From an uncultured bacterium (lineage in GTDB: Bacteria > B130-G9): a DNA stretch of 64,000 nt. Location of the stretch: positions 1 through 64,000 of the forward strand of contig CBDVDH010000012.1 in NCBI GenBank assembly GCA_965372715.1, given 5' to 3'. Of this stretch, positions 1 to 15,033 are shown one piece after another (the first letter of the stretch is position 1; the number at the start of each line of letters is the position of its first letter). Both the position numbers and the translations under genes were made by a program. The notes beneath the pieces are model-generated. The model was not told the origin of the DNA. It worked only from the letters and a program-made list of their open reading frames with translations, and ran no database searches.

Positions 1-35
1 TCATAACAGAAAGCGAAAATAGCATCAAGTGAAAT

Positions 36-1647
36 GTGTTACACTACACTAGGATGCAGGGAAACAGCAGTGATCCACGTTTTCCGAATAATATTCTGAA
101 GGGCATTTACTATACGCCGCCAGTAATGCGGGAGTATGCGGTCCTGCCTTGGTACGAGGGCAAGATCAAAAACCTGACCAATGGCTACAAGAAACTACAT
201 CCTTACTACCCAGGATTTAGAGAAGTGTGCATCTCGACAGAAACTGCGTGTGATTTGAGTAACATGCCTTCGAACGCGATTGACTATACTTTCACAGATC
301 CTTCGTACGCGGACAAGGTGCAGTATGGAGAGCTGAATTTCTTGTGGGAATCATGGCTTGGCTTCGACACACATTGGCATGACGATGAAATAATAGTCAA
401 TGAGGTTCGTGGAAAGACGACTGGGGACTGGGCCGATATGCTACGTCAGGCCATGTCCGAATGTTATCGGGTACTCAAGCCCGGACGTTGGCTGTCTCTC
501 TGCTACCACCATACTTCACCAGAAATGTGGACCCTCGTGCAGGACATTATGGCCGAGGTTGGGTTTCTCGTGGACAAGTCTGACTCGGTACTTTTCATTG
601 ACACGGGACAGAAGAGCTACAACCAGATAATGGCAGACAAGGTGACGAAGCGGGACCTAGTTATGAACTACCGCAAGCCACGGCCCGGCGAGCTAACCTC
701 ACTCATCCAAATCACTGGCGGCGAGGATCAGAGAACATTCGCAGAGAAGGTCCACACCGTCATCAGGGAATACCTGGGGGTCCATGCTGGCGCCACAAAA
801 GACCGGGTCTTTGACAGGGTCGTCAGCTGCATGGTACGCGCAGGCCTCATGGAGGCGCACAACTTCGATGAGCTCCTTCGACAAGTTGCGGATGAGGTCA
901 AGGCGCCTGTCATGAAGAATCTCTTTGAGCGGAAAGACCCGGATGTATTCGGCACCCATGAGGTCGGTCGTTGGTTTCTCAAGGAGACAGAACTCGACGT
1001 TGTCGATAGAGCTGAGTCGGCGAGAGAGGATGCAGCCGCCGATGCCATTGGCGCCTTCATCGCCAAGTTCCTGAAAGAGAACCCAGATGAGATAGGTGTC
1101 CACTACAGCGACATCTTTGAGCGCTATCTCTATGTTCCTGAAAGAGAACCCAGATGAGATAGGTGTCCACTACAGCGACATCTTTGAGCGCTATCTCTAT
1201 ACCGTCAAGGACAAGCCGAGGCACGAACCGTTGGATTGGCTTTTGGACTACTTCTACAAGACGGGCTACAGGAGCTACCGGCTACCCATCTCTGAGGAGG
1301 AGAAGCGTCTGAAGGCTCAGGGCAGGGCTAAAGGCATCATGAGATACATAAGGCGGTATCTTGCTTTTCTGGAGCGGGGTGTCGATGTTCCCCAAAAGAA
1401 GAGGCCGAGCGACGCCACACTTGCCGAGTGGATCCACCATTGCAGGCGTTCCGGTCTGTATGACCAGGGCAAGCTCCTCTATGAGATCGGTGGCCTCAAT
1501 CTGAACAGGTTGCCGGAGAAGACGAGGTTTGACATCCAGGAGGACTACGAGGTCTGTGTCCGGGAGCTCGGCCGCAGCCGGCTCGCTCAGAGCGGGAAGA
1601 AACGAGGGACAAAGAGACGGCGTGTCGGGATGAGGCCGGGAGAGTAA
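36..1647 (+). pseudogene. Adenine DNA methyltransferase (PglXI/DUF1156-like), C-terminal part, split by a 67-bp tandem duplication
   Basis: YTFTDPSY (DPPY-like motif IV), YGELNFLW and ECYRVLKPG motifs. ORFs 36..1157 and 1096..1647 fuse in frame if one copy of the 1067-1200 duplication is removed. All three + frames have stops within nt 1-32. Confidence 0.75.
1067..1200 (+). repeat. Perfect 67-bp tandem duplication (1067-1133 / 1134-1200)
   Basis: gttcctgaaagagaacccagatgagataggtgtccactacagcgacatctttgagcgctatctctat occurs twice back to back. Confidence 0.97.
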
Positions 1648-1650
1648 GAT

Positions 1651-4600
1651 ATGTCGAACGATATCTTGACCAATCGCAAGGGACTCGACGAGATCTGTTC
1701 CGTCCCGAAACACATCATCTCGGTCTATTCACTTGAGAAGCACGTTTGGGCCCATGCCAACGCGAAGGAAGCGCGCAAGAACCGCCAGCCAGAGCTTCAA
1801 ACGGTGGACGAGTTTCTGTTCGACCCGGTGCGGGCCTTTTTCATGGACGTCCTCCGGAAAATGGCTGCGCCATACTGGCCAGAGCGAAGGGATGAGCCAA
1901 TTGGCCAGGGGTATTGGATACAGGCCGAGTTTGGTTCAGGCAAGTCGCATATCCTGTCTGTCCTGTCCGCGCTTGCCCTCGGTGATCAGCGTGCCTGGGA
2001 CATAGTGCGTGAGAAAGAGCAGAGCGCTGGCCGAGGCAAGCGCGAGTCACTCTATCGCTTCTGGCAGGAGGGTATCAAATCCAAGGGCAAGGACGGGAAG
2101 AGAGGTATCTTTGTCTGCGTCAAGACGCTGGTCGGCGTTGGCGGACATGTCGCCGGACAGGACAAGGATAAGGGCAGGGATTTGTGCGAGTACATCCTCG
2201 ACGCCGTAAAGGAGCAGCTCGAGATTGAGCTTGGAAGGAACGTCTCGCTGTATCCCGCCGAGCTTCTGGTTGACCGTTTTCTTTCTCAGGACCTCGACCG
2301 TTATCGGAACGATCTGCGTAAGTTCCTTTGCGATCCGAAGTTCTTCGCCGAGGACGAGTTCGAGGATATCGGCAAGTTCATCCAAGAGATGCAGGACGAC
2401 AGATCTCCTGAATACAAGCGTAGCTGTGGGAACAAGCTCTGGCGCTTCTACGACGAGTATCTGAAGGTCAGGCCTCAGATCGAGACCGAGGCTGAGGAGT
2501 TACTGAAGCACATGGTCGAGACAATTCTCGCCGAGGGTTACAGCGGCTTTCTCCTGGTTCTGGATGAGGTTTCCATCTTCATGAAGGACCGCGACGAGCA
2601 GCTACGCACCGGCGACGAGAAGACGCTCGTTGTTCTCTCAAACCGCCTCGCCAAGGTGCACAACTTGCCTATCTGGACCGTCTGCACCGCGCAGCAAGCC
2701 ATCGAGAGCAAGATGGGCGTCAAGAATATAATCGCCGCCGACCGCCTGAAGCTCGTAACGCTGCTCGAAAAGCATGCCGACTATTACGACATAGTTCTGT
2801 CGAGGGTACGAGAGATCAAGGATTCGAGCGCGGTCGGGCCTTATTACCTTCATTACAAGCGTGGTTTCACATGGCCGAGCGCCATAGGAGAGGATGAGTT
2901 TGAGCACTTCTTTCCGTTCCACAAACCTGCGCTTGAGGTTCTTAGGCCAATAACCTTCGAGTTGACGACGAGTCGCTCAGCCATTCACTTCATGCATCAA
3001 ACCCTAAAGCACCAGGTCAAGTCCAAGGGAAAGCAACTCATCAGGCTCTGGGAGCTATTCGACGAGACTGTGCGCTATGAGGAGGACCCAAGTGGTGTTC
3101 ATGCAAGCCTGGCGTCAATAAAAACCAGTCGCGAAAGCGAGTATAAGGCATACGAGGCTTGTAAGCGCCAGATCGATGGACTCACCGGTGGCTATCTTCG
3201 ACATCACCATGACAAGGCGATAAAAATCCTACAGACATTATTCTTGGTGCACATCGCCAGAACCAAACAGCAGGGCATGTCTTCGGAGGAGATAGCCAAC
3301 TCCGTCCTCATTGAGAAGGATAGTGAGGCTACGCCGAACGAGAACATCCAGCATTACGAGACCCTCGCTGAGAAGCTAAATACGGAGCTGCGGCAGGTCG
3401 TTCAGACCTTCGATGACGAGGGCCGGCGGCTGTATCGGTTCGATCCTGTCATCACGGGTATTGACCCCAACGCTCGCTTCAAGAAGGCGCGCGATGATGC
3501 GGAATCAAATGAGAAGAGGCGCAAAGAGGCGTGGGAACAGCTACTATTTCTCGGTGAGTGGACGGTCAAGACTCGCAATATGACGCTCGATCTTAGCAAT
3601 GGGATTATCTCCATATTTCACGAATTGCCTACTCTAGAAGAGGCCAAATACGCCCGATCCGCAGGCGCCAAGATTGAGATCGAATGGGCGGGTCGCGAGG
3701 TGTTCGGCGAAGTGAGCATGTGCGACCTTGCGCGCATCAATCCCGACGGATTCGCCCTGAACAGCTCTGAGACCGACTACGACTTCAAGGTCTTCATATC
3801 CACCGGCCCAATTCCTGATGACAGATTGGACTCGTTTCTGAATAGCACGAAGGATCCGCGCATCCTACTTTGGACACCGGGGGAGCTGACCTCAGATGAA
3901 GAAGATAGACTTCTCGATTTCACGGCATACCGAAAGCTCGCACAGGAATTTGGGGGCGAGGAAACTGAAGACGCCGTCGCGGTGATCAACTGGGTCTATG
4001 GGAAACTCCAGACAGAGCTAGCGGCCATCAAGGGAATCGTTGACAATAGCTACGGTCGGGGAAGGATCGCCTCGCGCGAGAACACGAGAATGGGATTCCA
4101 TGTGGCCGGAGGGCTCCAGAGCATTCTGACCCCTGTCGCAGGCCAGGTTCTCGACAGCACTTATGCGTCCCGGGACATCAGGTTTGAGCATCCGCACAAG
4201 TTCACCAAAGATGAAGGTGTCAAGGTCATCAACGGAATTGTGAAAACCGGCGAAATCCCAAAGGGTGCTAGGGCAGACAGGAACGTCAGCGCCGTCCAGA
4301 ATTACGGGCTAGGCCTCAAGCTGGTAAGGCGAGGCGCAGAGAGGATATTGGACACCTCCGAGAACCCCCACGTTCGTGACATGTGGCGTTTCATCGATGA
4401 CAAACTGTCTGACGAGGGCCAGACCATGTCGGTCCAGACATTGTATAAGAACTTCATGGGGATCGGTGGGCCAGAGGATTACGGCTTAACCCGTCGGATG
4501 GTTCAGATTTTCCTCCTATGCTTAGTTCGGGAAGGTAAAATCCGTGCCGGCATTAGCCCGAAATCGGGTCTCCGACACCCCGCGATCGACTACGGGAACA

Positions 4601-5052
4601 TCTCAGGGGTTAATTTCTCAGTCAAGGTGCTCGATTCGCTCACCGATATCCGAAAAGTGGGGAAGCCAGAGAACTGGGATGTCCTTCGACCGTACGCGGA
4701 GAAACTCCTGGAATCAGAAATCCCTGAAACACACCACGAGGCGCTGATCGCGAAGTATCGTCGTGACCTCCGGGATCTACTTGTGCTGGAAAGGGAAAAG
4801 GCGCCTCGTCTTGAGAGCAGATCGAGAAGCCTCTTCGAGTTCCTCAAGGCAGAGAATCCCTACGAAACCGAACTCGGTCAGGCGGTCAACCTGTTCTCTG
4901 CCGACATCGAGAGTGGTGATGACATAAATCAGATCCTCTACATCCTCAAGAAGACATTTCATTATATGCCTTACGATGAAGGTCCGGCATCCCAGGATGA
5001 GGTAGATGATCTCGCGAACCGATTGAGAGCATCCTCAAGAGTGATGAGATGA
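1651..5052 (+). CDS. brxC: BrxC/DUF6079-like P-loop ATPase (possibly C-terminally truncated)
   Basis: Walker A-like AEFGSGKSH, Walker B LLVLDE, FFPFH motif typical of BrxC/DUF499-type ATPases; lies upstream of pglZ and brxL. Confidence 0.75.
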   Translation: MSNDILTNRKGLDEICSVPKHIISVYSLEKHVWAHANAKEARKNRQPELQTVDEFLFDPVRAFFMDVLRKMAAPYWPERRDEPIGQGYWIQAEFGSGKSHILSVLSALALGDQRAWDIVREKEQSAGRGKRESLYRFWQEGIKSKGKDGKRGIFVCVKTLVGVGGHVAGQDKDKGRDLCEYILDAVKEQLEIELGRNVSLYPAELLVDRFLSQDLDRYRNDLRKFLCDPKFFAEDEFEDIGKFIQEMQDDRSPEYKRSCGNKLWRFYDEYLKVRPQIETEAEELLKHMVETILAEGYSGFLLVLDEVSIFMKDRDEQLRTGDEKTLVVLSNRLAKVHNLPIWTVCTAQQAIESKMGVKNIIAADRLKLVTLLEKHADYYDIVLSRVREIKDSSAVGPYYLHYKRGFTWPSAIGEDEFEHFFPFHKPALEVLRPITFELTTSRSAIHFMHQTLKHQVKSKGKQLIRLWELFDETVRYEEDPSGVHASLASIKTSRESEYKAYEACKRQIDGLTGGYLRHHHDKAIKILQTLFLVHIARTKQQGMSSEEIANSVLIEKDSEATPNENIQHYETLAEKLNTELRQVVQTFDDEGRRLYRFDPVITGIDPNARFKKARDDAESNEKRRKEAWEQLLFLGEWTVKTRNMTLDLSNGIISIFHELPTLEEAKYARSAGAKIEIEWAGREVFGEVSMCDLARINPDGFALNSSETDYDFKVFISTGPIPDDRLDSFLNSTKDPRILLWTPGELTSDEEDRLLDFTAYRKLAQEFGGEETEDAVAVINWVYGKLQTELAAIKGIVDNSYGRGRIASRENTRMGFHVAGGLQSILTPVAGQVLDSTYASRDIRFEHPHKFTKDEGVKVINGIVKTGEIPKGARADRNVSAVQNYGLGLKLVRRGAERILDTSENPHVRDMWRFIDDKLSDEGQTMSVQTLYKNFMGIGGPEDYGLTRRMVQIFLLCLVREGKIRAGISPKSGLRHPAIDYGNISGVNFSVKVLDSLTDIRKVGKPENWDVLRPYAEKLLESEIPETHHEALIAKYRRDLRDLLVLEREKAPRLESRSRSLFEFLKAENPYETELGQAVNLFSADIESGDDINQILYILKKTFHYMPYDEGPASQDEVDDLANRLRASSRVMR

Positions 5053-5648
5053 AGGCACTCCGAGCTATGGAGAACATAAGCGTTCTGCAGGCGCCATTCG
5101 CAGATGAGATCGAAGAGAAGCTGAGCAAGTCCCTGGATTCGATCTTCTCGTGTCCATCGCCATCCAAGCAATCTGTCGAGGAGCAGCTCAAGACCGGACC
5201 GACCCATGAGTGCGACCTGTCTTTCGAGAGCGCTTCGGAATGTGTCGATGAGATGAAGATCGCTGTCAAGCAGGCCCGTCACATTCTTGAGTCCTCAATT
5301 CATGACAAGATGGCAGTAATGAGCAGCCCCGCAGTGCGCGAAAGATTAGCCCAGGGGGAATCTGAACCTGTCATCGATGGTCTTCTTTCCTGCAAAGACG
5401 TCGCCGAGGTAAGATCTTATCTCACGAAGGCCTGCATCGAGAACGCCTCTGTCGTTGAGATAATCAACCGATATCTGAAAAAGGTAGTCATCAGGCTCGT
5501 GAAGATCGCGGATTTCAGGCCCCAAACAACCATCATAGAAAGAGGGCATCTCCCCGTTCTGGTGCAGGAGTTCCAAGCCTTCCTTGAGAAGCAGTTCGAG
5601 GGCGCTGCTGAGGACGACGATGTCCTGCCATTGCTAAAGGTGGAATGA
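5049..5648 (+). CDS. Helical hypothetical protein; probably the detached C-terminus of the BrxC-like ATPase
   Basis: ATGA overlap with the ATPase stop; its frame is open upstream to 5010 and reads IESILKSDE-MKAL; its stop overlaps the pglZ start. Confidence 0.55.
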   Translation: MKALRAMENISVLQAPFADEIEEKLSKSLDSIFSCPSPSKQSVEEQLKTGPTHECDLSFESASECVDEMKIAVKQARHILESSIHDKMAVMSSPAVRERLAQGESEPVIDGLLSCKDVAEVRSYLTKACIENASVVEIINRYLKKVVIRLVKIADFRPQTTIIERGHLPVLVQEFQAFLEKQFEGAAEDDDVLPLLKVE

Positions 5649-8560
5649 TGGACCTCCTGAAGGCTTGGGTGCTCTCGAAGCTCGAGGCTGTTGCGGATCA
5701 AGAGCGAGTTCTGCTTCGTGACCCATTGCACCTGCTCCCCAAGGAAGACGGCACGGTTCATGCCTTTGCTCTGAAGCACGGTTTCACGGCTGTAGAAGCG
5801 GCTACCAATCTTGCCTTTCGAGATCTATACGAGAGGACGGTCGAAGATGCCGGCACCAGGAAGATTCTTCTCTATGATCGAACCCCATCCAGAAGAAAGA
5901 TGTCGCATTCTTCGACCAAGGCTCCTCCCCTCTTTTATCCGGACTTCGTGGCACAGATCCCTGCCGAATGCCAAATCGACCTCGACCTGAAAGAGTTCCT
6001 GATTGAGAGAACTGGGGACAGCGACTGGCCTAGTCACGCGAACGACCCGCAATATGCCAGGCTTATCGCTCAGAATTTGGGCCGCGTCTTACGAGCTCAT
6101 GAGAACCTTTGGGCGAGCCATCCTCGCCGTTTCACCGATAACGACTTCAAGACAATCGTCGGATACGCGGCACTCTCCATTCCAGAGGCTGCGTTCAAGA
6201 AGGACCTCAACCCTGAAGTGCATTGGAAGATCGGACTGCTGCATCACCGGTCGCTCACCGAGCTCGAGGCGCTAGCACCTGAGATCACGAAACCTATCAA
6301 GGACAGACTCGCAAAAGCCCGGGCGCCCTTCTGCTGGTTTGCAGACCATGACCCAGAAATGGTCGTGCGGGCGTTCTACCTTTCAGTAATTCTCAGACAG
6401 CATTTTGACCACTGGAGTCTCCTCTTAGCGAATATCGATTCCGCCATGAGGGCCTTCTCGTCGATTGAGCTGGAAGTGCTCGATGAGCTTGCGCCTAAAA
6501 TAACGAAATCAGATCCAGAACGGGCGGAAACTGACCTCTCACTAGTTGAGCAATCGCTGCCGCTCGATGCGCTCAAGCTACTTCTGATTGACCAGATGAA
6601 GCTCGATACGCCGAAAGGATTTGTGTCGGCGATACAGCGCGAGAGCTACAGCACACTCGTGCGTTCTCTTGCGCTGCTTATGGCGCTGGACGACCAGCTC
6701 TCAACTCAGCCGGCAGCAATTGAGCAGGCAGAGATCAAGAAATCGCTGTTTTCTGATTTAGATGACGTGGACCGCTTCGTCGATTCACGGTGCGAACCAG
6801 CCTGGTCTCATCTCAAGGAAGCATACAGACTGGCTGGCGACATTTGTAGCCTACGCGGTGTATTGGGCAGAGCGGTCAAAGACCTGAAAGTCACCAAGAC
6901 CCACGAGCTCGATTTCAGGTTTTTCAAGAAGCTCTTCAACGATAGGAAGGTCAGCAAACTTGAGTATTATATTTCTGCGATAGAGAGGCTTCTTAATACA
7001 AAAGATGTTCTTCCGCGCAGCAGCGATGAACTGCCGTCAGTATTTGGCGAGGCGTTGCAGCGAACACAGGAACAGGTCCGCGCAATTGGGGAGGAAGTAA
7101 GTCGCCAACTGGATGTGGTCAATCTTCGATTTCAAGATATGGTGGCAGCGCAGTATCCAACGTGGGTCACCAGTGACAGCGACGTAAGGCTTACCAGCCA
7201 GTTTATGCGCCGCTGCCTGAAATCCCATTGGGACCCCGAGAAACAGAAGGCAGTCATCTTCGTGTTCGACGGCATGCGTTATGACATCTGGGAAGAATTT
7301 ATCCGGCCCGTGTTTGAGGAGGCGATGGACATCGAGGTCGAGTATTCAGCATCGTCGCTGCTTCCGTCGGAGACTCACATCTCCCGCAAGGCAATCAGTG
7401 CAGGGACTTACTCAGATGAGTTTGATACCAGAATGAGCGAGGACAAGCTACTCAAGACGGCCCTCGCTCGCGAATTCGGCTTTGAGGGCGAAGTGGAGGT
7501 CCTGTCGTCTGAAGAGACGAGTACGGGGGAAGCCGTGCATTACCGTGCAGGGAATCTCGATGTACACATCTTTGAACTTTGCGATCAAGAGCTTCACAGG
7601 ATCAAGGTTAGGGAACATGCCGATGGACGAGTGGTTCCGCGCCGACCATTGGTCTTCATCTACGAACAGCTACTCAAGGACATCATTGACAACGAGGTAA
7701 GGGCTGTCGTTCGGGAGATTAAGCCTGGCACGAAGGTATTCGTGACCGCTGATCATGGATTTGTGAAGCTCGGTCGGAAGAAGGTGCGTCTGGAACAGGA
7801 TTGGTTGAACGAATCGAACGACTGCTTCTATCAGTATGCCCGACTGCTGAAACCTTTGGCGGCGCATGGGGCAGCTAAGAAAGTAACCGACAGAGTTATT
7901 GAACTGCCGGCATCCGCGCTTCGCATACCCACAACGGAGACCGCTCGCAATCAACTACTCAATTGGGATAAGCAATATGCCTCAGTGATATTCCCCAGGC
8001 CTGGTTGCGCCCTTTCACGCCCCGAGGCCCGGTTCGATCCTCCGGCTTTTAGCCATGGGGGCATTTCAGTTCAAGAACTGATGATCCCTATGGTTGTCAT
8101 GCGGGTCAGAGAGAAAGAAAACGCCACGCTCATTCTCGGCAAGATAGAAGGTCCCGAAGAGGTTGTCGAGGGACAGGAGGCGGAATTCAGTCTATCGATT
8201 AAGAGAGCAGGACGTGCACTCAACAGAGGGGATGAGATCAAAGTCGACATAGAGGCGTCGTACTGCCTCGCTCCTGACAAAGGTAAGCTGCCCCAGAAGT
8301 TTACTTATCTAACAACGCAAGAGAAGACCATATCTTACCGCTTTCTGCCAGATCCCAGCGACGCAACCGATGAGGAGAGACGCCAAGGAAGTATGAGTCG
8401 AACCCTCAAGATGTCAGTCACGTGTCCTATGAAAGGCAGCTACCGTAGGAAGTCCAAGACGCATTCGTTCACAATACGACTGGACTCAGAACGCATCACG
8501 CGCCGGGTCCCTCCGCGGCTCGGGAAGATATTGGGATTAACTCCGAAGAGCATGAAGTGA
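5645..8560 (+). CDS. pglZ: PglZ alkaline-phosphatase-superfamily protein with a beta-rich C-terminal extension
   Basis: [28 protein letters not shown] and [14 protein letters not shown] motifs. Confidence 0.9.
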
Positions 8561-8573
8561 CAAGGACTCGAAC

Positions 8574-10616
8574 ATGAACGACCATCTTAGGGAGGTCTTC
8601 AGAGGCAAGGTCGTAAATAAGGCCCACACCATAAATACGGGCGTGGACGAATTCCCTCGATACGTTCTGGAGTATCTTATCGACAACTACTGCGAGGAAG
8701 AGACGTTCCATCAGGACATGGAAAGGGTTGTTCGGCGCCTCAAGCAGACCTTCGTCCATGGTGCTGAAGCTGAGAAGATCCGCCACTACATTCGAGAGAA
8801 TCGCGAACACTCGGTGATTGCTAGCCTCGAGGCGCGATTGGTCGAGACCGAGGACAGGTATTGGGCCTCCATTTCCGCAATAAATGAGAACTTCGTGAAC
8901 ATCCCTGAGAGCATCATTCGCCAGTATCCGATGCTTCTCTCTGGGGGAATGTGGGGCACCATCGATCTCACCTACGACGAGACGGAAGTCCACAACAAGA
9001 AGATAAGGCCATTCAAGGTGACAGGCTTCACGCCTTTTCAGGTGAGCGTCATTGACCTGGAGGAGTTCATTAAGAATCGTTTTGAGTTCAGCACCGAGGA
9101 GTGGATCGATGTCCTCATAAACTCCTGCGGGCTCAACCCAGACAGAATGAGTCGTCGGCAGAAGCTGCTTTACATGTCCCGGTGCATACCGCTTGTAGAG
9201 ACGAACGTAAATATGGTTGAACTCGCACCGCGCGAGACTGGCAAGACATATCTCTACAGGAATATCTCCTATTGCGCTCACGTTCTCTCCGGAGGCAAAG
9301 CTACTCCCGCTCAACTCTTTATTAACCTGAATTCGGGAAGAATCGGTGAGGTTGGCACCCGTGACTCAGTGGTTTTCGACGAGATTGCCAATACGGACTT
9401 CAGCGACCCGAGGGCGTTTGTGAGCATCATGCAAGGTTACATGCAGGACGCTAGATTCAGCCGTGGGAAGAAGGAAATCCTAGCCTTTGCCAGCCTCGTG
9501 TTTGTGGGGAACATCGATGTTCAGGGAACTATGCCACATGAGAAATACTACCACCTCTTTGAGCCCTTCCCTGACTTCTTGCAGGTATTGGCTTTTTTGG
9601 ATCGAATTCACTGCTATTTGCCCGGCTGGGAGATCCCCAAGCTCTCACCGCACAGCTACTCAGAGGACTATGGCTTCATCACAGACTATTTCTGCGAGAT
9701 CATGCATGAGCTGCGGCGCGTTGATGCGCTAGGAGCGATCCGCGACCGCTTCGAGATCATTGACCTGAACAAGACGGCCCAGGGCGTCTCCGGACGAGAT
9801 CAAAGGGCCATCATGAAAACCACATCCGGGCTCTTGAAGCTGCTCTACCCTCACGGAAGTATCTCTGACCCTGAACTTCAGGAGCTATTACTGCTTTCAT
9901 GCGAATTCAGGCAACGTGTGCGTGATCAACTCCACCTCATAGCGCCCGGCGAATACGACAAGGTTAGGATAGGCCTCAAACTGACGCAATCGGGGCAGAA
10001 GCTCTTTCCGACCCTACCGGAAGCAGATCGGGTTCAGACGGTATCTCTGCCCGATGAGCCATCGGTTGGCGAGGTTATAGGATTGGGCGTGACCGCCGAC
10101 CACGGTTGTATCCTTCGCTTTGAGATGCAGGCCACTAAGGGAACGGGCCGGATAGTCCCGCTCGGCTCAATTCAGAAGGTGATGCGAGAGAGTATAGAGG
10201 CCGCGGCTCAGTACATAAGGGCCAGGCATGAGGATATGGGGATCAGCCCTGACTGGCGCCAGAACATCGATGTGGCTGTTCTTGCGACGTTCATGGGAGT
10301 ACCTAAAGAAGGACCATCTGCTGGGGCTACAATCGTGACAGGGATCGCCTCGGCATTGAAGAAAGTGCCCGTTCGGAACGACTTGGCCATAACAGGTGAG
10401 ATAACAATAATGGGGAGAGTTCTGCCGGTCGGCGGCATTCAACAGAAGATTCAGGCCGCGTATGAAGCTGGTGTCAAAGAGATTCTGCTACCCGCAGACA
10501 ACCTCAATGACGCCAATAGCCTCCCCTCATACATTACCGAAAGCGTCAAATTGACGCCCGTCCAGTCTGTCGAGGAGGTTCTTAGACTAGCTTTCTGTAA
10601 GACGAGAAGGGGATAG
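8574..10616 (+). CDS. brxL: BrxL Lon-like AAA+/protease
   Basis: [31 protein letters not shown] and C-terminal Lon domain PKEGPSAG...TGEI...VGGIQQK. Confidence 0.93.
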
Positions 10617-11133
10617 ACTGTTGACTGTTATCCTGCCCTAACGGAGATTTAAGGAAACGGAAGCCATCAAGAACCTCACAAGAATTTCCCCCCTTACCCC
10701 ATCAGGGAGCACCCTCGAAAATCTGAACCGCCTATGTGAGTCAGAAGTCGAAAGTCACGTGCCGCTTGTGTCGAGGACAACATTTACAGAACTTGACCAG
10801 CCAGCCGTATTTTTTCAGAGCAAAAATTTCTCTCGAGCTTTTGATACCTTTACCTCTCATAGGGGCAGATACGTTATTCTGAACCAGCCTCTCTCTACTG
10901 CCGGTCGGCCTACCGCGGCGGGCACGACCCGTGGTACCGGTACGACTACGGCGGTTTTCGCGTGGCCAGGTAATCTAATTGATCACCTGCCCACTTTGCT
11001 ACTTAGCTACCTGCGATAGTTTAGCGAGATGCAAAGGTGAAGGTAATCCCCGCGCGCAAGGTGAGTAGGGACCGGTTCAGAAGGTATAGTAGCACCACAC
11101 CAACCAGTAATTCCCCGCGCGCGAGGTAATGTG

Positions 11134-11466
11134 CTACGGCTTCTTTCGCTTGGCTTTGCGGAACTTCCACCACGCTCCTATCCGGGCCGCAAGAAAGAGC
11201 ATCAATCCGAGGAACGCGACCACCGCGCCTCCGAACGCCACATCTGGATCGGCCCCCGAGGCTCCACAGCCAACGAAACCGCCGTGGACTATAAGCAGTA
11301 TGCCCAGCAGTTGGCAGGCCTTGTAGGTCTTGCCCGTCTGCTCAACTGTTTGCACCGGCCGGCGGGGTTGTTCCTTCTCCTGTGCAATCGGGCAGCCACA
11401 ATTAGGGCAGGACGCCGCCTTCTCTGATACTCGTTTCCCGCATTCGGGGCAATCAATCAGTGCCAT
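11134..11466 (-). CDS. Zinc-ribbon membrane protein
   Basis: MALIDCPECG...CPNCG followed by two hydrophobic segments. Confidence 0.75.
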   Translation of the reverse strand: MALIDCPECGKRVSEKAASCPNCGCPIAQEKEQPRRPVQTVEQTGKTYKACQLLGILLIVHGGFVGCGASGADPDVAFGGAVVAFLGLMLFLAARIGAWWKFRKAKRKKP

Positions 11467-11508
11467 TAGTCTCCCTCATCGGACGGCTTCTCGCCGCGGA
11501 GAGCCTAC

Positions 11509-12099
11509 TCACTGCAAGACCTTCTCAACAAGCTTCAAGACGAAATTGCGTGAGAGCTTGTATGAATAACGATAGTCGTTAATGTAACGATCGACCGTCG
11601 ATCCAGGAGCTCCAGGATGACGCATTAGATTACGGCTCTTTCGGCTTTGAGCTATCTGTCGCCCAAAGCCCCACTTATACGCATACCAGTCGGCACATAG
11701 TTCTGAAGTCCACTCATCCGAAGGATGCTCGCCTCTTCTGTCCAGGTCTTCTACCCGTGTGCAGGCGTGGCCGAGCTCATGGGCTATCGTTGCAACATGC
11801 CGATCTTCAGCAAGGCGTTTGGCAAGGCCCACATCTCCTGGTGGGTTATCGAACCAAGCAGCATAGGCGGCGCGGTCTGTGTAAAGCAGATCTTCAGGAG
11901 GCGTCGGTATCGAGCACCATTCGCCGCTCGTCTTTCCATCATCCTCCCTCTCAGACAACCACCTGAAGCGCTTAACGAGCCGCTGTATGCGCTCAAAGTC
12001 TTTCGGACAACGGACCTTGATCTGGTCAAGCACTCGCCTGATGTTCCTGCGCAGCGGGCGGCTGCCGATCTCGACAGGTATGCCGTGTATTCGGCTCAT
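11509..12099 (-). CDS. HExxH metallopeptidase-like protein (ImmA/IrrE-like motif pattern)
   Basis: TIAHELGH...SELCADWYA; likely start is MSRIHG at 12099, just after the upstream gene's stop. Confidence 0.6.
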   Translation of the reverse strand: MSRIHGIPVEIGSRPLRRNIRRVLDQIKVRCPKDFERIQRLVKRFRWLSEREDDGKTSGEWCSIPTPPEDLLYTDRAAYAAWFDNPPGDVGLAKRLAEDRHVATIAHELGHACTRVEDLDRRGEHPSDEWTSELCADWYAYKWGFGRQIAQSRKSRNLMRHPGAPGSTVDRYINDYRYSYKLSRNFVLKLVEKVLQ

Positions 12100-12100
12100 C

Positions 12101-12532
12101 CTACTCACTGCCAGGCCCCGTGATACGGCTTGCTGCGAACGCGAGAATGTCCTCTCGCGCATATTGACGATTGGCGTTAGGCCGAACCTGCAGCGATCGG
12201 ATCGTGCCGGCCTTTGCCAGCGTGGTCAACTTGGAGTTGCCAATGCCCAGAATGGCCGCAGCCTCTTTGGTGGTCAATCGCCCTTTGCTCAAATACTGGG
12301 CAATCTGTGGCGCAACATGTGGCGCGCCTTCCAATGTCTGCATCGAGTCTATATGCCCCTCTAACGCCTCTCTAATGGCCTTGTGGACTACCACCTCAAT
12401 CTCGGCAAGCGACGGATATGCCGGCGCCTCAAGGGCCTCCAAATGTGGCGCTGCATGTGTGGCGCAACGTGGCGCAACCACTCCCTGGCTATCGCGGAAC
12501 TTGTGAACTTCTGTGATCTTCTGTGATATCAC
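12101..12532 (-). CDS. Excisionase/MerR-type HTH DNA-binding protein
   Basis: C-terminal LTTKEAAAILGIGNSKLTTLAKAGTIRS...RQYAREDI; start uncertain. Confidence 0.6.
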   Translation of the reverse strand: MISQKITEVHKFRDSQGVVAPRCATHAAPHLEALEAPAYPSLAEIEVVVHKAIREALEGHIDSMQTLEGAPHVAPQIAQYLSKGRLTTKEAAAILGIGNSKLTTLAKAGTIRSLQVRPNANRQYAREDILAFAASRITGPGSE

Positions 12533-12553
12533 AAGCGCAACAGTTGCGCCACA
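12306..12553. repeat. Cluster of (T)GTGGCGC(AAC) repeats, five direct and one inverted
   Basis: Copies at about 12306, 12318, 12444, 12458, 12469 and inverted gttgcgccaca at 12543. Confidence 0.7.
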
Positions 12554-13513
12554 CCGCGCAACACGAAATCACACCTCCAACTGTACCTCCAACTTCATCT
12601 TCAACTACAACTACAAATCAAGGTACTTCCCCTATTACCCCTCCTTCCCAAAAACCGAAGCGGCGCAAAAACGGCCCAACCAAGATGTAAACATCTGTAA
12701 ACACTCCCCGAATTGGGGAGTCCATGTTGCCCTGCGAGGCGCCGATCGACGCGGTGTTTTTTGAGAGCAAAAAATCTCACCACCAAAAATCTCTCATACA
12801 AAAGAGCACCCCTACTCCTCATATACACCATCTTTGAAATCTGAACCCGCCTTCTCTATCACGGCAAGGACAAGGATGACTGAGCAGCGGCGCCACAATG
12901 CCATTCTAGCTCCCGGGAGCAACGCTACACAATGCTTGGGGACACTCTGCTCTCGAAGTAGTGTTAGGACACCACTAGCCATCTCAGAAGCTCCCGGGAC
13001 AACAGAATTCACTGGCAAGGGCGAGATAAGGATGAAGGGATGATATGCGAACAGCATACGCTGTTGGGCCCGCATGGAGCGCTGAGTGTCCTATTGTGGC
13101 CAGTCCCTACAAGGGATAGTAGGGCTTCCTGGCAGCACTGAGGCCCTCAAGGTAAGGATGAAGGGAACAGCGTCAGCGCCGTGAGCTTCTGTGAAATCTG
13201 TTAAATTAGTGTCCTTAACATCTTTTAACACATCTCTCTTTGCTGCGCGACGGCGGCGCATATCCTCAAGGATGAAGGGGAACAGCACGCAGTTCCCTTG
13301 CATAGTAGCGCTGCGAGTGCAATGTCCGTCAGTCCCTGAGCGGGATGACTGGGCATCGAGTAGAGCCGTATGCCCATTGATGAGATGCAGCGTCATGTCG
13401 AGACGCTTGTCGCACTTTCCGTGCTCGGCGGACTGCGTCGCAAAGACGCATAAGAGCGCAAGCGTGGCGTGAGAGATGGATCGTGAAGGCTCACAAGGAA
13501 GTAAGAGTGGATT

Positions 13514-13618
13514 GCCGCGTTCCGATAATGCGATTATCGTAAGCGGCGCATAGATGTGGTGCAGCAGCCCACAATCAAGGCGCAGGGATGGACGTTACAT
13601 AATCTCGAGATTATGCAA
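13514..13618. promoter_or_regulatory. Pair of palindromic recombinase/regulator-type sites
   Basis: gccgcgttccgataat-gcg-attatcgtaagcggc (13514-13547) and the perfect 18-bp cataatctcgagattatg (13598-13615). Confidence 0.5.
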
Positions 13619-14517
13619 AGTGCATCCCCGCTACAGTCCCGCCCAAAGCGTGACTCCTATGGATGGCATGGTAACGCCGAGCCACGCTCCTGTGTATGCA
13701 TATCTTTGTTCAGGCGATTCATATAACCACCGACACACGCCTGACCAAATAACAGCATCCCCATCCACTTAGGCCGTCTTATCCCATGCTGTATTCATAA
13801 GATGCCCTCCCTCCAACCCATTCCAAGGCCGATGTCAGAACATGACTGCCAGAGACGGACGAGACACAAGGCCTCGCTCATGGTTTTTCTCACCACAGGG
13901 GCGGACTTGCGTCCGTTCGCCAGCGAATGAGAAAAATCCGTCTCAGTCAATCATGTTCCAACATGCGAAGTGCATTAGAACCTCCCTAGGGAACCTCAAG
14001 CGCCGGTTCCCCAGACCCCTTTCAGCGCTCCAGAAAAGAAAAGCTGGGGGAAGACAGAGAACTTCTCCCCCCAAACCCCTCTCACACCTTTCAGACAACA
14101 TTAAGCTCGTAACCTTCGACACACTAAAAGAGTGGTCTTGGCATCTACATGAGCCACCAATATGAGGCGGGCACAGGTCGAGTGCCCTGACGTGCCTCTT
14201 AGCCAGCACGAGCCACTCGAAGGATGAAAATCACTACATGATTTTCTAGTGAGCCTGCTATGGAACCTGCCAGGGAACCTCTACTCTCGTCAACCCACAA
14301 GGGGTCGCGACGTGAACTTGCGTCCTTCATTTGTTTTCTCAAGGGTTCCCACCCCAGAAAACAACACTCAGGATGACCCGAGCGAGAACCCCTGCCTCCT
14401 ACTTATGAGCAGGCTCACCCGAAAAAATCGATGTTGAAAAGTTCATTAGATGACGTGTCGTCGAGGCCGATGGCTACGACGACAGCCACAACCACAACTC
14501 ACGAAGGGAGACACCTT

Positions 14518-14838
14518 ATGGCACACGAAACCGCGAGAAACCTCACGCAGATAGAGCTTCTTGAGCCTCTGCCCGACGGCGGCTTAATCATTCGCTCTGA
14601 ATCAGGCGACGAGATATTCATCGCCAGCGACTTCGACTTCCCCGGCATCGCGACGACATTTGGTTGGCCAGGTTGCCCTTGTGGCAGCAGAGGCACCGAC
14701 GGAACAATTGACTGCCCCGATTGCGGACGAACAGCATCCACACTACTCCGCCGAGCCGCCCGTTGGATTGACGACAATTGGGGACTCATAGTCGAGGACC
14801 CTGGGTACTTCACAGACAAGGAGGAGGCTTACTTATGA
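14518..14838 (+). CDS. Small Cys-containing hypothetical protein (mobile-element type)
   Basis: GGGAG RBS before ATG 14518; CPCG...DCPDCG motif. Confidence 0.55.
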   Translation: MAHETARNLTQIELLEPLPDGGLIIRSESGDEIFIASDFDFPGIATTFGWPGCPCGSRGTDGTIDCPDCGRTASTLLRRAARWIDDNWGLIVEDPGYFTDKEEAYL

Positions 14839-15033
14839 CGAGAGCATTGGTTCTCAGACCATCACCACCAACCCCGAGGCCAGAGCCCTATGAGCTCATC
14901 CAACAGCCGAGGCCGGAACGCAAATGCTTTGGATGCCAAGGCTGAACGCCAGGAAGTGCCTACGGTGCAGAGACTTCGACCTTTGCTTTCACAAACACCT
15001 TGCAACCACAAAACAAAGGAGGATCAACCTGCT

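Follow-up and report, generated by a model that had tools for sequence, protein, structure and literature searches.

Evidence for an uncatalogued BREX variant that joins a type-3-like methylase to BrxL, and its probably inactive copy in an uncultured bacterium

To which type of the bacteriophage exclusion (BREX) systems does a locus belong that has a DNA methylase, a BrxC-like ATPase, PglZ and BrxL in one row, and is it still functional? The question is raised by a 64,000 nt stretch of DNA from an uncultured bacterium (GTDB lineage B130-G9; assembly GCA_965372715.1, contig CBDVDH010000012.1, positions 1 to 64,000), called here the window. At 36-10616 it holds a row of co-directional and closely packed open reading frames (ORFs) in which ORF calls and profile searches find the signatures of these four functions. 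A previous reading of the sequence alone had suggested an undescribed BREX subtype. Our results indicate that this is very probably a real, uncatalogued variant of BREX, in which the role set of type 1 is combined with a methylase and a BrxF-like protein of the type-3 kind and in which the core proteins are too divergent for the catalogued subtypes, and that the copy in this genome is a relic.

The four functions named in the sequence-only reading were all matched by profiles, but the locus in the window is partial and the copy is damaged. BrxL is unambiguous: ORF 8574-10616 reaches 377 bits with BrxL_ATPase, 174 bits with Lon_C and 103 bits with BrxL_N of Pfam, 459.5 bits with TIGR02688 (cut-off 329.3) and 560.6 bits with the BrxL model of PADLOC. 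PglZ and the ATPase are recognisable by weak profile matches. ORF 5645-8560 matches Pfam PglZ with 33.4 bits (cut-off 25), and ORF 1651-5052 passes BrxC_BrxD with 25 bits (cut-off 22.2), whereas for the DUF6079 relationship proposed before it stays with 16.5 bits below the cut-off of 23. A PglZ and an ATPase of the BrxC/PglY type in one operon are the combination by which the BREX superfamily is recognised. The presumed methylase gene, ORF 36-1157, is indeed of the PglXI type, but its match to the PADLOC model (140.9 bits) is restricted to positions 432-701 of 919; it is the middle of a gene whose 5' half is located at the end of another contig, C27. Its C-terminus was found in a second ORF, 1096-1647, which had been overlooked, as had the decay of this copy. 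The genes are separated by gaps of 3 nt (1647/1651) and 13 nt (8560/8574) and overlap by 4 nt at 5049/5052 and 5645/5648.

The window is the start of a contig, C12, in an assembly of 112 contigs. Its bases 1-52 recur as the same 52–56 bases at five other contig ends. Altogether the assembly has six such right ends and six left ends; the latter read CTAGTGTAGTG... and repeat the right ends in inverted form. Every one is located at a contig end and all 12 junctions carry CTAG. Such a pattern is the hallmark of a multi-copy insertion sequence (IS) whose body is outside the assembly. The contigs concerned are C12 (at both ends), C14, C22, C25 and C80; and C27, C33, C40, C54, C87 and C95, which corresponds to at least six copies. 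C27 closes with a left IS end, into which an ORF runs that matches positions 70-422 of PglXI, and C12 opens with a right IS end followed by positions 430-701. Without the IS, and with the CTAG (or TA) duplication reduced to a single copy, the two halves of the methylase come by arithmetic into one frame, and the residues at the junction fit the family consensus. In front of the methylase half C27 encodes, in the same direction, a fusion of an HhH domain with BrxA and a BrxF/BrxB-like, inactive P-loop protein. The best explanation is that the window shows the 3' five-sixths of a six-gene locus of the BREX family with the order HhH-BrxA, BrxF-like protein, PglXI-type methylase, BrxC-like ATPase, PglZ and BrxL. 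The sequence-only reading had named upstream genes completing a described subtype as a finding that would speak against a new one; BrxA-like and BrxF-like genes do complete a set there, but it is a new six-gene set and not a described one.

Is this set conserved? Among 8000 scored candidates, 377 proteins were related to PglZ at E<=0.001. At least 119 of the non-self relatives come with a length and an identity: those listed are 961–996 amino acids (aa) long and 49–57% identical, hence 971 aa is a normal length. Dehalococcoides (with D. mccartyi DCMB5), Anaerolineae, Acidobacteriota, Omnitrophota, Syntrophales and Bathyarchaeota are among the sources named for the matches listed. In a representative library of 1.84 billion proteins, 357 clusters were matched by PglZ at E<=0.001 and 97 at E<=1e-30. 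There were two further searches: tblastn of PglZ against 72,556 plasmids gave no match, and a Pfam PglZ search of 301 genomes from the phylum of L013, a GTDB genome locus that served as our reference, matched seven genomes and missed L013's own. For the analysis of neighbourhoods we took the best 80 of 219 metagenome stretches together with L013. These 81 loci, which form 55 clusters at >=95% PglZ identity, were mapped with the L013 proteins as reference in tblastn and ORF-level blastp; L020, L043 and L062 are examples of intact ones.

The result is clear for the gene content. All six families are present in all 25 clusters that span the BrxF-like gene to brxL, apart from ends cut by a contig edge such as in L077 and L079, and BrxL was found in all 24 clusters whose sequence continues for 5.5 kb or more downstream of pglZ. 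Thus the methylase, brxC, pglZ and brxL are supported as a conserved system and not as a chance neighbourhood, and the earlier statement that a methylase together with brxC-pglZ-brxL fits none of the described BREX types held for those tested. The order of the genes is a different matter. While the six-family set recurs in other genomes, the methylase position varies: of the 25 complete clusters, 11 have it between the BrxF-like gene and brxC, as in the window, 10 have it between pglZ and brxL, and four have it at both sites. A methylase in front of brxC, proposed before as a defining trait, is therefore not one. In a FastTree phylogeny of 46 methylases the upstream and downstream positions are interleaved (the downstream gene of L019 groups with the upstream gene of L031, that of L024 with the upstream gene of L062), and the two methylases of L058 (1896-4520 and 13774-16377) are mutual closest relatives with a support of 100. 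It follows that the methylase is one orthologous cassette which moves and duplicates, and that gene order does not define the system. Two full methylases also flank brxC-pglZ in L068 (3052-5547 and 13520-16057), and methylase fragments stand alone at one site in L019, L027, L069 and L073. Turnover of the methylase looks frequent and, given these moves, duplications and breakages, the cassette may be an exchangeable specificity module.

The family proteins can be described as follows. The first has a BrxA-like fold and an additional N-terminal HhH domain; its profile matches a PGAP-named BrxA at E 8.8e-21, a protein that itself scores 24.6 bits with Pfam BrxA (cut-off 23). For the second, 22 out of 27 members match the BrxF model of NCBIfam, all below its cut-off and at best with E 3.6e-5. 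A Walker A motif of the form G-x4-GK[ST] was not found in this family, which fits the description of BrxB and BrxF as 'inactive STAND' proteins in the available part of a survey from 2026 (PMC12839542); a profile search against solved chains returned a chance match only (E 2.1). The methylases show motif I (PFCGSGG) in the N-terminal part, then a Cys-rich insert and then DPPY, with five Cys columns between motifs I and IV kept in at least 43 of 46 members. The PADLOC model PglXI (PDLC02541) gives 198.9 bits with the N-terminal half and 140.9 bits with the middle segment of the methylase of this genome, and 354 bits with that of L013. The BrxC-like ATPase of about 1445 aa has in the window a Walker A motif GSGKS at residue 95 and a Walker B motif LDEV at residue 304; BrxC_BrxD is matched by 25 of 26 alignment rows and DUF6079 by eight, DUF499 is absent at E<=0.01, and nothing was found among solved chains at E<=1. 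PglZ of the window, row 1 of the alignment, holds all invariant columns including D542, T577, D703, H704 and H804, as expected of a metal site, and its profile finds PorX-type response-regulator chains only. About 130 residues follow the last catalytic motif, with a beta character judged from the alternating pattern of the family consensus. This tail had been taken as unusual, but type-1 PglZ also ends in a beta-barrel (residues 749-867; available part of PMC12205998) or beta-sandwich (2026 survey, same part), and the total length is the usual one within the family.

With regard to the subtype models, the window PglZ scores 41.9 bits with the BREX-3 model NF033449 (cut-off 250) and lower still with those of types 1A, 1B, 2 and 5, for instance 21.5 bits with type 1A (TIGR02687, cut-off 270.35) and 24.9 bits with type 1B (NF033450, cut-off 400). 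BREX_PglZ_3 is matched by 30 of 30 PglZ members with a best E of 6e-15, compared to 2.5e-8 for 1A and 1.5e-8 for 1B. The BrxF-like protein reaches 23.5 bits with NF033453 (cut-off 50), and on the PADLOC models PglZ, BrxC and BrxF attain just 14–31 bits. As references for the types, four annotated plasmid loci were compared by profiles and hhalign. The family profiles of the BrxF-like protein, the ATPase and the methylase had no match at E<=10 to BrxB, BrxC and the two PglX of two annotated type-1 loci, on whose PglZ proteins the PglZ profile scored 26.5 and 12.0 bits. On one type-3 locus the methylase profile gave 309 bits, the PglZ profile 31.7 bits and the BrxC profile 15.8 bits. In hhalign, PglZ was alignable over the core only: with type 1 at E 1.5e-9 over 265 columns, with type 3 at E 5.2e-9 over 75 columns and with a haloarchaeal cassette at E 5.4e-13 over 214 columns.

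Type-1 BREX, for which a Halomicrobium salinisoli plasmid (NZ_CP084467.1, L104; brxA-brxB-brxC-pglX-pglZ-brxL) served as reference, has the same set of roles, A, B, C, X, Z and L, and like the family it has BrxL. In contrast to type 1, the family methylase is of the PglXI type and without a match to the BREX-1 PglX, the protein at the BrxB position matches BrxF instead of BrxB, the BrxA-like protein carries the extra HhH domain, the ATPase of about 1445 aa is unmatched and PglZ shares the core only. Type-3 BREX (brxF-brxC-pglXI-brxHII-pglZ-brxA, as in plasmid pRA04 of Roseicitreum antarcticum, NZ_CP061499.1, L103) shares the methylase family with its order of motif I, Cys-rich insert and DPPY, the same layout that the 2026 survey in its available part gives for type-3 BrxXI, as well as a BrxF-like protein without Walker A, and BREX-3 is the PglZ model with the lowest E value. 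Unlike type 3, the family has BrxL and lacks BrxHII, a Swi2/Snf2 helicase of about 940 aa; its BrxA-like gene, fused to HhH, stands at the front, its PglZ has about 970 aa with a C-terminal tail instead of about 640–670 aa without one, and its BrxC is barely alignable. No BrxHII was found from C27:44837 to window position 10616, and inside the 55 representative loci there was no unlabelled ORF of at least 500 aa (the longest had 486 aa). From type 4 the family differs by having a methylase, and no ORF of the locus matched PAPS-reductase as BrxP would. The closest annotated relative of all its proteins except BrxL is the haloarchaeal cassette on a plasmid of Halorarius halobius (NZ_CP101162.1:14184-25420, L102), which consists of a methylase, BrxA, proteins of 173 and 1301 aa, PglZ and a metallophosphoesterase, and has no helicase. 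It differs, however, in lacking BrxL, in a PglZ of 726 aa, a BrxA without HhH and the order of genes. The BR systems centred on DUF499, as presented in the available part of PMC12839542, have in common with the family a methylase resembling PglXI, an inactive STAND-like protein and PglZ, but their ATPase is DUF499, they have a helicase similar to BrxHII and their PglZ domain stands alone, whereas the family has a BrxC_BrxD/DUF6079 ATPase, a multidomain PglZ and no helicase that was found. A full-text search of the BREX literature, to which the supplementary locus lists of the survey did not belong, returned no description of this combination.

BrxL deserves separate attention. It is closest to BrxL of type 1, with 517.6 bits on one of the two type-1 loci, 408.2 bits on the other and 349 bits on 8emc. 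In a gapless alignment of the window protein's Lon domain with E. coli Lon (6u5z; E about 4e-41), S582 falls on S679 and K625 on K722. In the family, Ser is present in 56 out of 57 rows and Lys in 55 out of 57, the rest being gaps. In contrast, the Ser position is Leu, Glu or Ala in all three type-1 BrxL compared, three comparators being too few to gauge how rare a kept dyad is. Acinetobacter BrxL, which has been studied structurally, is described as lacking the Lon residues essential for protease activity (Shen et al., PMC10164562, available part), and the Lon domain of BrxL in general as lacking the Ser-Lys dyad (PMC12839542, likewise). With the dyad of Lon (S16) proteases in place, BrxL of this family is a candidate protease.

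In which state, then, is the copy in the window? Besides the IS, the methylase contains a tandem duplication with a period of 67 bp, 2.0 copies and 100% matches according to Tandem Repeats Finder, which can also be read directly. Both frames at the duplication match the same residues of the L013 methylase, 678-713, and according to tblastn, with which blastp agrees, 1126-1602 corresponds to residues 678-838 with 59% identity. Since 67 bp is not a multiple of three, the C-terminus is out of frame. Motif IV, which the sequence-only reading had given as DPPY, is DPPY in 46 of 46 relatives but reads DPSY in the window, unique among the 47 sequences. The ORFs 1651-5052 and 5049-5648 are two pieces of one BrxC-like protein of about 1445 aa: by tblastn 5013-5645 corresponds to L013 residues 1236-1446, and residues 1134-1235 (about 102) have no counterpart. 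A complete brxC in the 81 related loci is one ORF of 1435–1489 aa, with 1380 aa in L046 and L048 as exceptions. The HhH-BrxA fusion, the BrxF-like protein, PglZ and BrxL of this genome are of full length. A methylase which is cut by an IS, shifted in frame and mutated in its catalytic motif, together with a BrxC that has lost about 102 residues and the frame, would not be expected to provide marking or defence. Hence the copy is probably an inactive relic. The coordinates are compiled in Table 1.

Table 1. Features at the BREX-family locus and in its surroundings; positions are those of the window unless a contig is named
Feature	Position	Strand	Basis and remarks
IS right end	1..52	no strand	ends ...TACACTACACTAG; contig and window start inside the IS
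Methylase middle segment, motif IV = DPSY	53..1157	+	PglXI 140.9 bits; collinear with L013 methylase residues 363-713 of 838; ORF listed as 36-1157, of which bases 36-52 are IS, not methylase
Perfect 67-bp tandem duplication, frame shift +1	1067..1200 (1067-1133 and 1134-1200)	+	Tandem Repeats Finder
Methylase C-terminal segment, other frame	1096..1647	+	homology from 1126; tblastn and blastp
BrxC-like AAA+ ATPase, N-terminal 1133 residues	1651..5052	+	BrxC_BrxD 25 bits; 60% identity to L013 residues 5-1133 of 1446
BrxC-like C-terminal fragment, 199 aa, other frame	5049..5648	+	homology from 5013; tblastn
PglZ, 971 aa, apparently intact	5645..8560	+	Pfam PglZ 33.4 bits; relatives 49–57% identical
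BrxL, 680 aa, apparently intact; MCM-like AAA+ and Lon domain	8574..10616	+	TIGR02688 459.5 bits
HhH-BrxA fusion, 401 aa	C27:44837-46042 (L012:16838-18043)	co-directional with methylase	
BrxF/BrxB-like inactive P-loop protein, 176 aa	C27:46039-46569 (L012:18040-18570)	co-directional with methylase	
tRNA-Ile(GAT) and tRNA-Ala(TGC)	C27:43876-44076 (L012:15877-16077)		about 760 bp upstream of the first locus gene
Zinc-ribbon protein	11134-11466	-	
Weak IrrE/M78-like protein	11509-12162	-	
HTH_17 protein	12101-12532	-	

The surroundings give a hint as to how the locus arrived. On C27 it is preceded by housekeeping genes and by a tRNA-Ile/tRNA-Ala pair, whose usual place is in rRNA spacers. A search of six other genomes from the phylum found PglZ in none of them. 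In three relatives the 10.6–15 kb part of the window is not conserved, while both outer flanks are (in the window from about 15,000 onward) and lie on separate contigs there; in a genome of the same genus the assembly breaks exactly at the tRNA pair. The absence from the six genomes and the unconserved 10.6–15 kb between conserved outer flanks fit an acquired island beside the tRNA pair. The pair may mark the insertion site, and the stretch of small ORFs at 10620-15000 may be what is left of the element with which the locus arrived.

The related loci accept additional genes. From their 39 unassigned ORFs, 24 were scanned (plus-strand and non-nested ones were chosen); no helicase domain was found in these, and they comprised AAA_21/AAA_15 in three loci, DUF4276 in one, AbiEi in two, PIN in two, HEPN in one, Schlafen-AlbA_2 in three, others in two and no family in 10. 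The AAA_21/AAA_15 genes are located within the operon (L046:15721-17531, L089:14267-15565 and L026:4133-5314), in L046 and L089 in the interval between methylase and brxL, and AbiEi, PIN, HEPN and Schlafen-AlbA_2 occupy the same slot in other loci. In L046 a DUF4276 gene lies beside AAA_21/AAA_15, a pairing that we take to resemble PARIS. Seven of the 81 loci (L016, L017, L050, L053, L058, L061 and L070) have a Ser/Thr protein kinase of 376–411 aa between brxC and pglZ; that of L016 (8839-9972) matches Pkinase with 137.6 bits. The tail of this kinase resembles the methylase C-terminus, and the gene recalls the kinase PglW of type-2 BREX. Directly before brxC, about 16 loci have a stand-alone gene of 190–320 aa with DUF7662 (89.7 bits in L016:3692-4474), which resembles the methylase's C-terminal region (L013 residues 739-831). 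A full-text literature search found no mention of DUF7662.

How might an intact member of the family work? By homology to type-1 BREX, as described in the available parts of PMC12205998 and PMC12839542, the methylase would join with BrxC, PglZ and the two small proteins in marking a motif in the host DNA. Unmarked incoming DNA would be bound via the BrxA-HhH protein and the arms of BrxC and be recognised by the same complex, and PglZ, as a metal-dependent nuclease or phosphodiesterase, and a BrxL ring loading onto DNA would then stop it. BrxL of this lineage may in addition act as a protease.

The most serious alternative is that we deal with a sub-form of type 3 with BrxL in place of BrxHII, already contained in the 23% of type-3 loci without BrxHII in the 2026 survey. 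The nearest catalogued profiles are all of type 3 (BREX_PglZ_3 in 30/30 members, BrxF in 22/27 and PglXI with 354 bits on the L013 methylase). According to the available part of the survey, loci without the helicase are filed under type 3, as BrxHII is present in 702 out of 919 type-3 taxa (77%), and BrxL and the helicases are proposed to share a DNA-unwinding role; the family may thus be hidden among these loci. Yet the same part of the survey calls the methylase BrxXI specific for type 3 and BrxL specific for types 1 and 4, 'entirely absent' from type 3 and absent from type 2, and describes type-3 PglZ as free of C-terminal domains, whereas the family PglZ continues for about 130 residues past its last motif. 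Moreover, the type-3 scores are far under the cut-offs (41.9 versus 250 and 23.5 versus 50 bits; 15.8 bits for BrxC on type-3 BrxC), and in hhalign the family PglZ is about equally far from type 1 and type 3. We consider a type-3 sub-form rather unlikely. A divergent type 1 with a swapped methylase appears improbable. The six roles are equal and their order is nearly so, BrxL is closest to that of type 1, the first protein has the BrxA fold, and PglZ has in both cases a long N-terminal region as well as a C-terminal tail (available part of PMC12205998). Against this, the BrxF-like protein, the ATPase and the methylase find nothing in the two type-1 loci, PglZ reaches only 26.5 and 12.0 bits there and stays at 21.5 versus 270 and 24.9 versus 400 bits with the models 1A and 1B, and its matches among solved chains are of the PorX type only. 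An uncatalogued variant remains our preferred reading. Its wider form is that the family constitutes a seventh, unnamed BREX subtype spread over phyla of Bacteria and Archaea in anoxic sediments and bioreactors, with the type-1 role set arranged around a type-3 methylase and with the Lon domain of BrxL as a working protease; this we put forward tentatively, at slightly less than an even chance.

That two remnants of defence systems came together by chance in a defence island is effectively refuted by the six families standing together in 25/25 spanning clusters, and BrxL in 24/24, from many sources and phyla, even if the variable passenger genes (AAA_21 with DUF4276, AbiEi, PIN, HEPN, Schlafen-AlbA_2) demonstrate that the region accepts insertions. 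It is also very improbable that the window copy still works, with the split ORFs as subunits and the IS and the duplication as minority alleles or artefacts of assembly. The pieces of BrxC do overlap as ATGA, typical of coupled translation, the four other proteins are intact and the lesions are outside the read coverage. However, there are several independent lesions in two genes, DPSY has no parallel, no complete relative has a split BrxC, the exact 67-bp duplication is not a multiple of three, and six IS copies break the assembly alike. Several points weigh against our own interpretation as well. PglZ and BrxC resemble the catalogued BREX proteins weakly. The proposed join of C27 to C12 is made without a bridging read or contig, and each step of the mechanism above is transferred from work on type-1 BREX. 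An error of assembly or a polymorphism of the population may underlie the IS, the duplication or the BrxC deletion, as the single public read run covers the locus in scraps: it contained a fraction of 0.16 of the sampled words and yielded 13 short identical contigs, none over 735-2202. Finally, departures from family-conserved columns (17 of 224 in PglZ, 15 of 411 in BrxL, 8 of 133 in the methylase and 38 of 453 in BrxC) do not set the broken genes apart and may reflect a distant branch only.

What distinguishes this locus is an uncatalogued combination of BREX components, and neither the order of the genes nor the tail of PglZ. As PglZ, BrxC and BrxF fall far under the NCBIfam cut-offs and reach 14–31 bits with PADLOC, the family appears to escape the current catalogues, and it is probably undercounted where defence systems of anaerobic and uncultured lineages are surveyed. 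The copy in the window is a clear example of the stepwise decay of a BREX methylation module. How BREX arrests phages is not understood, and the role of BrxL is among the open points. Here the family offers a natural contrast, with a BrxL that has the canonical Lon dyad, a methylase in the style of type 3 and no helicase, and its intact members could be used to test proteolysis in restriction as well as the interchangeability of BrxL and BrxHII. If BrxL is indeed a working Lon protease, BREX restriction in this lineage would include the degradation of proteins, beyond the handling of DNA.

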